From NCBI GenBank assembly GCA_016195665.1, contig JACPZD010000024.1, positions 23,997 to 87,996 of the forward strand: 64,000 nucleotides of DNA, read 5' to 3'. The DNA comes from Gammaproteobacteria bacterium (GTDB lineage Bacteria; Pseudomonadota; Gammaproteobacteria; SURF-13). Position numbers and translations under genes: made by a program. Each line of letters begins with the position of its first letter. Position 1 is the first letter of the stretch. Positions 53,557 through 55,850 of this stretch are shown here, piece by piece. Under the pieces are notes generated by a model. It made no database searches. It saw only the letters and a list, made by a program, of their open reading frames with translations, and was not told the origin of the DNA.

Positions 53557-54162
53557 GTGGTGCTGGTGCACGGGCTTTGGATGAAGGGACTCGCCATGAC
53601 CTTGTTGGCGCAGCGGCTGCGCGGCTGCGGCTTTACCGTTGTGCATTTTTCCTACCTGTCGCTCGCCCGCTCCGTGAGCGAAAACGCCGCGCGGCTCGGC
53701 ATGCTGCTCGCCTCGCTGAGCGCACCCGCGATCCATCTCGTTGGCCATAGCCTGGGCGGTCTGGTCATTCTCCGTTTGCTGAAAGATAAGCCGGATCTGC
53801 CGCCGGGCCGGGTGGTGTTGTTCGGTACGCCGTATGCGGGGAGTCATGCCGCGCGCGGCTTGGCCGGCCACGCGGCCACCCGCTGGCTGTTGGGTAAGAG
53901 TTATGAAGGCGGATTGCGTGGCAATGGTCCGGTGTGGCCGGGCGGGCGTGAGCTGGGGGTGATTGCGGGCTCGCGGCCATTGGGATTGGGCTGGCTGGCG
54001 CCCGGCCTTGGCAAGCCCAACGACGGCACGGTGGCGGTGGCGGAGACCCGCGTGCCCGGCGCTAACGCCGAGCTGACCTTGCCGGTGTCGCATACCGGCA
54101 TGCTGTTCTCGGCCGAGGTGGCCGAGGCGGTGTGCCGGTTTTTACATACCGGGCGCCTCTAA
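53557..54162 (+). CDS. alpha/beta-hydrolase (lipase/esterase-like; GHSLGG nucleophile elbow)
   Basis: Probably a GTG start (VVLVHGLWMKG...). The stop codon TAA is provided by the left terminal inverted repeat of the downstream MITE-like element. Confidence 0.65.
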   Translation: MVLVHGLWMKGLAMTLLAQRLRGCGFTVVHFSYLSLARSVSENAARLGMLLASLSAPAIHLVGHSLGGLVILRLLKDKPDLPPGRVVLFGTPYAGSHAARGLAGHAATRWLLGKSYEGGLRGNGPVWPGGRELGVIAGSRPLGLGWLAPGLGKPNDGTVAVAETRVPGANAELTLPVSHTGMLFSAEVAEAVCRFLHTGRL

Positions 54163-54293
54163 AAATAGTGGATTTTGTCTTTAGGCAAGGCGAAATTCTG
54201 CGAGGAAGCGCAGTGTACACGCCAGTACATGAGCATTCCGAGCAGAATTTCAACGCGGCACAAAGACAAAAGACGCATTTTTAGAGGGCGCCC
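54151..54293. mobile_element. MITE-like element (about 143 bp) with terminal inverted repeats GGGCGCCTCTAAAAAT / ATTTTTAGAGGGCGCCC
   Basis: Terminal inverted repeats plus internal palindrome GAAATTCTGC...GCAGAATTTC; a second, longer copy at 55599..55850. Confidence 0.65.
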
Positions 54294-54339
54294 GACCGGC
54301 AGTTCTCGTGCGCCCCCTGCTAATGCTACACTGTGCAGC

Positions 54340-55086
54340 ATGGCAGGTCACAGTAAATGGGCTAATATCCAGCACCGCAAGGGCGCGCAGGACGCCAAGC
54401 GCGGCAAAATCTTCACCAAGCTGATCCGTGAGATCACCACCGCCGCACGCCTCGGCGGGCCCGATGCTAAAAGCAATCCCCGGTTGCGCACGGCGATAGA
54501 CAAGGCGCTGGTCAACAACATGACGCGCGACACCGTCGAGCGCGCGGTGAAGCGCGGCGCGGGCGCGCAGGAAGGCGATAACTACGAAGAGGTGCGCTAC
54601 GAAGGTTACGGGCCGGGCGGCGCGGCGGTGATGGTGGACTGCATGACGGACAACCGGGTGCGCACCGTGGCCGACGTGCGCCACGCCTTCACAAAGTGCG
54701 GCGGCAACCTGGGCACCGACGGCTCGGTGAGCTATCTGTTCACCAAGCTCGGCATCCTTAGCTACGCGCCCGGCAGCGATGAAGATAAAATCATGGAGGC
54801 GGCGCTGGAGGCCGGCGCGCAGGATGTGATCACCAATGACGACGGCTCGGTAGACGTGTACGCTGCGCCTGACGATTTTGCGCAGGTAAAACAGGCCATG
54901 TTCGATGCGGGGTTTAACCCTGCGCAGGCCGAGGTCACCATGCACGCCTCCACCAGCGCAAAACTGGATACCGGCGACGCGCTGAAAATGCTCAAGCTGC
55001 AAGAGATGTTGGAAGATCTCGACGACGTGCAAAACGTCTATTCCAACGCGGACATTCCCGACGAGGTATTGGCCAAGGCGGGATGA
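54340..55086 (+). CDS. yebC: YebC/PmpR-family transcriptional regulator
   Basis: [28 protein letters not shown]... invariant family N-terminus. Confidence 0.9.
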
Positions 55087-55610
55087 TGCGCATCCTCGGC
55101 ATAGACCCCGGCTCGCTCATCACCGGTTTCGGCATCATTGATGTCAACGGCAACACGGCCTCTTATGTCGCCAGCGGCTGCGTGCGTTTACCGGGAGACG
55201 CGCTGCCCGAGCGTTTGAGAATTTTGTTCGAGGGCGTCCGCGAACTGGTGACCACCTACGAACCCACTCAGCTCGCCATCGAGCAGATCTTCATGCACCG
55301 CAACGCCGATTCCGCCCTCAAGCTCGGCCAGGCGCGCGGCGCGGCGATCTGCGCCGCCGCGACCCTCAACCTGCCGGTGCACGAATACACTCCCGCGCAG
55401 ATCAAGCAGGCGATGGTCGGCAAGGGCAACGCCGCGAAGGAACAGGTGCAACACATGGTGAAGGTGTTATTGAAGTTGCCGGCCGTCCCGCAGGCCGATG
55501 CCGCCGACGCCCTCGCGGTGGCGTTGTGCCACTGTCACACCCAACAGGTGCTGAGTCACATCGGCGGCGCGCAGAGCTGGCAGAGGCGCAGACTGAAGGG
55601 CGCCATCTAA
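55083..55610 (+). CDS. ruvC: crossover junction endodeoxyribonuclease RuvC
   Basis: [11 protein letters not shown]...; ATGA overlap with yebC; the stop codon lies inside the MITE left terminal inverted repeat. Confidence 0.9.
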
Positions 55611-55850
55611 AAATGACGGATTTTGCTTCAAGACAAGGCGCAGCGCAGTCGAGCAGCGGTCGCTCCTGCGCGTCCTGCGCGTCCTGCGCCCGCGACATTG
55701 GTACGTCCCTGTACGGCACAGCATACACGCCAGTATGTGAGCAGCGCAGACAAGCTGCAACGGTCGCTCCTGCGCGTCCTGCGCCCGCGACATTCGTACT
55801 TCCTTGTACAGCACAGTATTGGAGCAAAAGACGCATTTTTAGAGGCGCCC
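55599..55850. mobile_element. MITE-like element copy 2 (about 252 bp) with an internal tandem duplication of a unit of about 95 bp
   Basis: Terminal inverted repeats GGGCGCCATCTAAAAAT / ATTTTTAGAGGCGCCC. The unit CGGTCGCTCCTGCGCGTCCTGCGCCCGCGACATT.GTAC.TCC.TGTAC.GCACAG occurs twice. Fills the whole ruvC-ruvA spacer. Confidence 0.65.

Follow-up and report, generated by a model that had tools for sequence, protein, structure and literature searches.

The recombination genes ruvC and ruvA are separated, in a 64,000-nt stretch of a Gammaproteobacteria bacterium genome (GenBank assembly GCA_016195665.1, contig JACPZD010000024.1, positions 23,997 to 87,996 of the forward strand; the whole stretch is called the window below), by a non-coding element bounded by terminal inverted repeats, and a shorter element of the same kind follows an alpha/beta-hydrolase gene a little upstream. 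The question raised by this locus is whether such elements are mobile DNA that has entered the ends of genes or regulatory DNA that belongs to the spacers. The analysis described here indicates with high confidence that both are copies of a non-autonomous DNA transposon of about 140 nt, that is, a MITE (a miniature transposable element with inverted repeats), inserted at the 3' ends of the hydrolase gene and of ruvC.

Two elements and their empty sites

Copy 1 (54151-54293, plus strand, 143 nt, subfamily A) is located between the hydrolase open reading frame (ORF; 53557-54162, Pfam Abhydrolase_6) and yebC, and copy 2 (55598-55850, plus strand, 253 nt) between ruvC (55083-55610) and ruvA (ATG at 55855), whose spacer is wholly occupied by the element and its 4-bp duplication. 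Each copy opens with GGGCGCC(N)TCTAAAAAT and closes with the complementary sequence; these terminal inverted repeats are 16-17 nt long and near-perfect, and the complementarity extends across the entire element. The ends and the flanking target sites are as follows.

54151-54166: left repeat of copy 1, GGGCGCCTCTAAAAAT
54277-54293: right repeat of copy 1, ATTTTTAGAGGGCGCCC
55598-55614: left repeat of copy 2, GGGCGCCATCTAAAAAT
55835-55850: right repeat of copy 2, ATTTTTAGAGGCGCCC
54147-54150, no strand assigned: left target-site copy of copy 1, TACC
54294-54297, no strand assigned: right target-site copy of copy 1, GACC
55594-55597, no strand assigned: left target-site duplication of copy 2, TGAA, within the ruvC codons CTG AAg
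55851-55854, no strand assigned: right target-site duplication of copy 2, TGAA, identical to the left one

The match between the repeats is beyond chance, the repeat 16-mer giving 4 matches in the window with up to 3 mismatches against 0.65 expected from shuffles, and the right-end 21-mer CAAAAGACGCATTTTTAGAGG occurring 2 times against 0.01 expected. The 3' end of the hydrolase ORF reads GGG CGC CTC TAA, with the TAA (54160-54162, plus strand) within the left repeat of copy 1, and that of ruvC reads GGC GCC ATC TAA, with the TAA (55608-55610, plus strand) within the left repeat of copy 2, which adds the residues G-A-I to the protein. No ORF of at least 60 aa lies wholly inside copy 1, and a promoter and terminator scan of 53900-56100 gave no signal above chance. 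Two elements with 16-17-bp repeats, whose left ends encode the last residues and the TAA stop of the hydrolase gene and of ruvC, had been described in the original prediction, and both can be read directly in the DNA; the second does fill the ruvC-ruvA spacer, with its 4-bp duplication, but measures 253 nt and not 252 bp.

A comparison was made with an ENA metagenome scaffold (L055), the closest relative with gene context, whose RuvC is 92% identical to that of the window and whose gene order is the same (aspS, nadA, hydrolase, yebC, ruvC, ruvA, ruvB). This scaffold carries neither element at the orthologous sites. Its ruvC (4001-4516) overlaps ruvA (4513-5121) by ATGA, its RuvC ends in RRRLK and its junction sequence is AGG CGC CGG TTA AAA TGA, to be compared with AGG CGC AGA CTG AA/GGGCGCC...GGCGCCC/TGAAATGA in the window, where the slashes mark the borders of copy 2. 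Deletion of 55598-55854, that is, copy 2 and one TGAA, yields AGA CTG AAA TGA with an overlapping ruvA ATG as in L055, and because this removal restores both the R-R-R-L-K-stop and the overlapping start, TGAA is recognized as the 4-bp target duplication. At the other site, the hydrolase-yebC spacer of L055 measures 59 nt and is free of copy 1, and the hydrolase ortholog differs at its C-terminus, where its tail is longer (206 aa versus 201 aa for the window protein). Aligned RuvC homologs end near ...RGR(V/I)R, the GAI tail being found only in the window protein and in an identical Logan protein; two Logan contigs (L056 and L057) bear the identical ruvC insertion and both end inside copy 2.

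Both elements are insertions, not conserved spacer DNA. The proposal that they had entered or replaced the original gene ends is upheld by the comparison of the hydrolase and RuvC C-termini with the L055 orthologs lacking the elements, and the opposite outcome, in which the genome search would give no further copies and orthologous loci would hold the same sequence, is contradicted by the many copies in other genomes and by the empty L055 sites.

As a separate observation, ruvC just 5' of the insertion point (55583-55590) reads AGAGGCGC, identical to the inner right repeat of copy 2 (55841-55848, AGAGGCGC); this match may be due to chance or to a preference for targets resembling the element's end.

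A dispersed family and the genes at its ends

Further copies were sought in a species-representative genome collection with the 20-base pattern GGCGCCN{0,1}TCTAAAAATNNNNNNTTTTG, for which about 2 chance matches are expected by our own estimate. The scan returned 54 loci, mostly in metagenome-assembled genomes (MAGs) of Gammaproteobacteria, with up to 9 matches per fragmentary MAG. The terminal inverted repeat of this GGGCGCC family is GGG(C/T)(G/A)CCTCTAAAAAT, and the complete elements, mostly of 138-144 nt, fall into subfamilies matching copy 1 and copy 2. Their boundaries are described best by G-GGCGCC...GG(C/T)GCC-C with a flanking 4-bp duplication, which is perfect in 18 of 44 elements versus about 0.17 expected; the two 5-bp models fit worse, with 10 and 8 perfect duplications, and in an independent sample, made up of elements that the covariance model found in other metagenome loci, perfect 4-bp duplications are present in 4 of 10 cases. 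The duplicated target is rich in A and T (T, T/A, N, A, roughly TNNA), often with C before and G after it (C|TNNA|G). Tn3-derived miniature elements (TIMEs) have repeats of about 38 bp starting with GGGG and generate 5-bp duplications, and the GGGCGCC family differs from them in its best fit to a 4-bp duplication. A literature search for the repeat string found no mention of it.

Repeat-like ends GG(C/T)(G/A)TCTCTAAAAAT were also observed between housekeeping genes outside Gammaproteobacteria, in a Planctomycetaceae MAG (L011, about 3031-7081), where several units of 180-245 nt have such ends, in Alphaproteobacteria (L005), in Melainabacteria (L021) and in Tannerella (L046); either other phyla also carry the family or its repeat end, or chance accounts for some of these matches.

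The structure of the element was examined through an alignment and a covariance model (R1) built on 28 clean copies, whose consensus fold is a single hairpin; compensatory changes are seen in 22 of its 47 pairs. Paired cells amount to 95.7%, a figure that falls to 82.4% in shuffles and to 34-55% with slid partners, and the covariation score is 0.41, compared with 0.16 in shuffles and less than 0.09 with slid partners. The RNA of copy 1 is predicted to fold at -79.1 kcal/mol (z -11), and the model scores 149.9 bits on copy 1 and 67.7 bits on copy 2. One strand folds better than the other in 41 of 43 copies, owing to G-U pairs.

Such a stable and covarying fold, together with the frequent position of the elements between operon genes, is what would be expected of conserved, vertically inherited intercistronic regulatory structures, either RNA hairpins or protein-binding sites, that had never been inserted at all. 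This explanation is contradicted by L055, where the same sites are without both elements, by the flanking 4-bp duplications and by the occurrence of the element beside unrelated genes in many genomes, and it can hardly be credited. The hairpin also invites comparison with REP/REPIN-type palindromes, which are spread by a RAYT (Y1 HUH) enzyme via single-stranded intermediates and not by a DDE transposase; the whole element being one hairpin, the better folding of one strand and the failure to find a transposase would all agree with it. However, REPs are about 20-40 nt long and are devoid of such terminal inverted repeats and of target duplications, while the element is about 140 nt long and has both, with frequent 4-bp duplications (18 of 44; 4 of 10) and without a GTAG-type head, all of which makes this origin very improbable.

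The transposon interpretation has to be weighed on the features of MITEs themselves: small size with no coding capacity, terminal inverted repeats, a target duplication and dispersed copies together with empty sites were all found, and what is missing is a cognate autonomous insertion sequence (IS) with the same ends. The search for a transposase with matching inverted repeats that the original prediction had called for came out negative in the family loci, viral contigs and plasmids, a search space small enough to make this weak negative evidence. Beside repeat ends without a partner, only housekeeping genes were found in the family loci; repeat pairs spaced 450-5000 nt apart, across all loci, are just neighbouring MITEs, and no repeat pair has an IS-like spacing; the viral contig scan gave 0 matches, and BLAST of copy 1 against plasmids gave none. 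These results speak against the interpretation, as do the flanks of copy 1, where TACC and GACC match at 3 of 4 bases, and the fact that only about 40% of the target duplications are perfect. The structural evidence must be read with similar caution: the independent covariation events are fewer than the cell counts because the sequences fall into a handful of subfamilies, and the orientation relative to flanking genes is weakly biased (14 co-directional versus 6), a bias too unconvincing for a strand-specific RNA function to be claimed.

The ends of the element have a recognizable relation to the genes around it. Read inward the repeat is GGG CGC CTC TAA, and outward it is ...TTTAGAGGCGCCC. 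A long open frame enters the element at 31 of 108 ends; 15 of these frames stop at the TAA of the repeat and 6 of the 31 at a junction TAG made of target TA and the terminal G. On the outgoing side, a long ORF starts 0-12 nt past the element at 12 of 106 ends, and Pfam assignments identify three such sites as the operon junctions rplY-pth, ubiE-SCP2 and HAD-rmuC. The native ribosome-binding site must have been displaced at these three junctions, which leaves the AGAGG of the repeat as the only Shine-Dalgarno-like sequence. The corresponding feature in the window is the following.

55841-55845, plus strand: AGAGG in the right repeat of copy 2, 9 nt ahead of the ruvA ATG, a candidate substitute for the ribosome-binding site, supported by loci in which 1-9 nt separate the end of the element from a start codon

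The course of events can be traced as follows. Copy 2 entered at TGAA in the last ruvC codons and thereby broke an ancestral ATGA stop/start overlap with ruvA, and copy 1 entered at the 3' end of the hydrolase gene; the TAA of the left repeat now terminates each upstream gene. Both copies were probably mobilised in trans by a DDE-type transposase. In the terminal sequence CCTCTAA / TTAGAGG, a stop codon would be met on entering and a Shine-Dalgarno-like AGAGG on leaving, and ends of this kind would account for insertions being tolerated exactly at the junctions of operon genes. The two repeats may pair in the mRNA at the base of the long hairpin, and a ribosome ending ruvC at the TAA could melt the base of the stem and expose AGAGG for ruvA, by which some translational coupling would be kept. 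Both the stop/Shine-Dalgarno role and the coupling model are inferences. An effect of copy 2 on the co-expression of ruvC and ruvA, suggested at the outset, is plausible.

The next junction of the operon is also disrupted. In L055 the TGA of ruvA and the ATG of ruvB overlap; in the window, ruvA is followed by 248 nt (56464-56711) that supply its TAG stop and form three strong hairpins (-102 kcal/mol, z -11), and the first approximately 30 codons of ruvB (MIETDRLIVPAEREEDEVAEHSLRPARLAEY) are missing, the remainder being 95% identical. Either the window ruvB is read from another start, for example GTG 56712, or the gene is damaged, or the junction is an assembly artefact. Within this insertion lies one of the copies (56488-56553) of a fourth repeat family, whose hairpin, (C)TTCACCGCRGAGGGCGCGGAGGAGAAA ... 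TTCTCCGCGYCCTCYGCGGTGAA, has a stem of about 20 bp and which is also present at 8652-8726, 30785-30858 and 42084-42159.

The 51-nt unit nested in copy 2

Copy 2 exceeds the usual length of the family, and its composition was resolved as a 142-nt subfamily B backbone with two nested 51-nt units and a 9-nt slip. The same unit occurs elsewhere in the window.

55659-55718, plus strand: first nested unit of copy 2, 51 nt with a 9-nt GCGTCCTGC expansion
55763-55813, plus strand: second nested unit of copy 2, at the site used alone in L130
13692-13742, minus strand: unit in-frame in the YyaL-like gene (11827-13950), a 17-residue insertion absent from 9 homologs
25754-25995, no single strand: cluster of unit copies and fragments in both orientations, the best copy being 25943-25994 (plus strand)

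Subfamily B elements without the unit read ...GAGCAGCG^CAGCATACA... at site 1, and in other genomes the same backbone is found without any unit, with the unit at site 1 only (L004, L009, L034) or with the unit at site 2 only (L130). The existence of backbones without the unit or with either site filled alone indicates two insertions and not a tandem duplication; copy 2 received, after its own arrival, two insertions of an unrelated 51-nt repeat. An internal origin, by duplication of a segment within the element, would be in keeping with the same orientation of the two units and with their 90-96% likeness. Against it, the 44 nt between the units are the normal, single apex of the element, both sites read CG^CAG(C/T)AT, 5 of the last 22 bases are not the same in the two units and, as seen above, each site is occupied alone in other genomes; such a duplication is unlikely. 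The tandem duplication of about 95 bp proposed for copy 2 has consequently to be replaced by an independent unit nested twice, with its 44-nt interval unduplicated. Two related claims need correction in the same direction: the degenerate copies at 25786-25995 are indeed copies of the unit, and the fragment in the yyaL-like gene is indeed in-frame, but neither is a part of the MITE, both belonging to the separate 51-nt family, and the latter is not a 35-nt fragment but the full unit at 13692-13742.

The consensus of the unit, GTCGCTCC..TCCTGC..CCGCGAC followed by a small covarying hairpin, is free of stop codons in all six frames by our own reading, and covariation is seen in the second hairpin of the unit. 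A metagenome scan detected it at no fewer than 120 loci, that is, at least 120 (L062-L181), and among the matches listed about 40% of the 133 unit copies lie inside long open frames; at some loci the units form head-to-tail arrays with a period of 50-51 (for example, L134 4693-4823, L067 868-947 and L175). A fixed target or duplication for the unit was considered and rejected: CG^CAG fits the sites in the MITE and does not fit the 133 metagenome copies. In the loci L114, L159 and L181 the unit was observed at the same position of apparently the same gene in diverged organisms.

The length divisible by three and the in-frame location in protein genes recall the Rickettsia palindromic elements and other intragenic small repeats, a likeness in length and location; in contrast to these, the 51-nt unit is much shorter, forms arrays with a period of 50-51 and nests in a MITE.

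The neighbourhood of the YyaL-like gene also contains REP-like palindromes, GTAGGGCCGAAT(T/A)CATTCGGCC, in 3 copies (11758-11794, 13952-13988 and 14931-14967), one of which begins directly 3' of the YyaL stop codon.

Relatives among known hairpin repeats

The window contains a third, more distant member of the family, with different repeat ends.

49311-49443, minus strand: third element, matched by R1 over its full length (42.9 bits, E 3e-9)

The space between two convergent ORFs is taken up exactly by this element: one ORF (48496-49311) ends at its edge and the other (49428-49841, minus strand) ends inside it. At 49368-49441 the element overlaps a match to the Rfam small RNA (sRNA) family sX9 (RF02228; 48.3 bits with a cut-off of 44), and it is similar by BLAST to elements of Yersinia, in the xylA-xylB spacer, and of Aeromonas, on which the sX9 model gives 40 and 35 bits, respectively, just under the cut-off. 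In Rfam searches, copies 1 and 2 gave no relevant match, and none to sX9 even at E up to 10. Elsewhere in the window, a tandem glycine riboswitch is present at 22577-22768 (minus strand; Rfam 70.1 and 46.7 bits), and in Aeromonas caviae (L183, 1-84) a glycine riboswitch aptamer is followed, about 20 nt downstream, by an sX9-type element.

In Xanthomonas, sX9 was described as an RNA of 75 nt (PMC3300014), and across bacterial genomes it is one of the sRNAs with the most annotations (PMC9029176), a frequency that fits a repeat. It differs from the GGGCGCC family in being filed as a 76-nt sRNA gene and not as a transposon, and it is antisense to the orientation used here for the family; it looks like one arm of an element from the same wider group. 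The converse view, that the elements are primarily small-RNA genes of the sX9 kind whose repeats are incidental, can appeal to the third element, which reaches the Rfam cut-off, to the RNA detected in Xanthomonas (PMC3300014) and to its frequent annotation (PMC9029176). It is opposed by the lack of any sX9 match, at E up to 10, for copies 1 and 2, by the position of these two copies within operons, on the sense strand, where neither promoter nor terminator signals rise above chance, and by the multi-copy spread with target duplications, which is the behaviour of a transposon, whose processed fragment the RNA could be. That view is accordingly regarded as improbable, and the elements are treated in what follows as MITEs.

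Among the closest analogues are the ERIC-type repeats (enterobacterial repetitive intergenic consensus, IRU; about 127 bp), which have a conserved central inverted repeat, the ERIC1R/ERIC2 region. Reviews treat these as TA-flanked MITEs with an effect on mRNA stability, located in intergenic or 3' operon regions, where they are co-transcribed (PMC3184786). Like the elements of the window, an ERIC is an imperfect hairpin over its whole length and has a similar size, and the apical motif GGAG-NN-TACA...AGTA-NN-TGA and the repeat-end CTCTAAA are common to both. They differ in their tips, which are TATACTC... in ERIC (the examined copy ends TATACTC...GAGTATA) and GGGCGCC... in the family studied here, in the flanks, which are TA in the former and 4-bp duplications in the latter, and in the hosts, Enterobacteriaceae/Vibrionaceae on the one hand and uncultured Gammaproteobacteria MAGs on the other. 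With default filters, R1 gave an E. coli ERIC copy, aligned over its full length (21.9 bits, E about 1e-3 in 114 kb), as the sole match in 50 kb of E. coli DNA; with the filters off, the scores were 34.7 bits for Aeromonas, 33.8 for Cupriavidus CH34, 27 for Yersinia and 21.8 for E. coli ERIC.

The Correia elements (CREE/NEMIS) of Neisseria are also MITEs; they measure about 104-157 bp, have terminal inverted repeats, form a long hairpin as RNA, make a TA duplication and affect neighbouring genes. Short strings are common to them and to the GGGCGCC family (ATAGTGGATT, CAAGGCG, CAGTACA..AGTAC and CAACGCCG), and the core of the Cupriavidus CH34 element is 85% identical to the Neisseria Correia core, while its ends, AGAGGCGCTATCAAAATGA, resemble those of the GGGCGCC family. 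The 26-bp Correia inverted repeat TATAGTGGATTAA..., for which end variants are described (PMC5039591), has no counterpart in the family, which has only ATAGTGGATT, internally. Genuine Correia and Aeromonas copies could be compared because two whole chromosomes are filed as plasmids in PLSDB, namely NZ_CP119140.1 (L060, Neisseria gonorrhoeae, 2.17 Mb) and NZ_AP026896.1 (L183, Aeromonas caviae, 4.9 Mb).

On the unfavourable side of this comparison, R1 did not detect the genuine N. gonorrhoeae Correia copy, the ERIC link depends on a 22-bit R1 match with rough E-values, and Smith-Waterman alignments to ERIC, to Correia and to the Cupriavidus element, judged by shuffles, were not significant (z up to 3), so that the superfamily claim rests on the covariance model and on chains of BLAST matches. 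That the GGGCGCC family is an ERIC/sX9-like hairpin MITE, in a common superfamily with both, is likely, not proven. A broader picture can be offered tentatively, and is doubtful when taken as a whole: ERIC, sX9-type, Cupriavidus/Correia-like and GGGCGCC elements might form one old proteobacterial superfamily of hairpin MITEs, with a stable apical module (GGAG..TACA...AGTA..TGAG with AAGGCG/AACGC) and exchangeable repeat tips; their repeats might have been shaped to be harmless in operons, through a stop codon on entering, a ribosome-binding site on leaving and coupling by melting of the hairpin base; and the nested 51-nt unit might be an undescribed tiny mobile element, open in six frames and tolerated in protein genes.

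The elements of the window are members of a real, well-supported MITE family of a known type, common in uncultured Gammaproteobacteria and apparently a distant relative of ERIC. They provide a clean, dated case in which a MITE has disrupted a stop/start overlap with translational coupling in the ruvCAB recombination operon, and in which a transposon end has turned into the C-terminus and stop codon of two genes. Bacterial MITEs are poorly catalogued, and a well-defined family is added to them here, with a consensus, a covariance model and a 4-bp target. For genome annotation, elements of this kind cause contig breaks (as in L056 and L057), altered C-terminal tails and mislabelling as sRNA (sX9). 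To our knowledge, the transposase behind ERIC-type repeats has not been identified to date; if the link to ERIC is true, genomes rich in young copies of the GGGCGCC family would offer a possible route to it.

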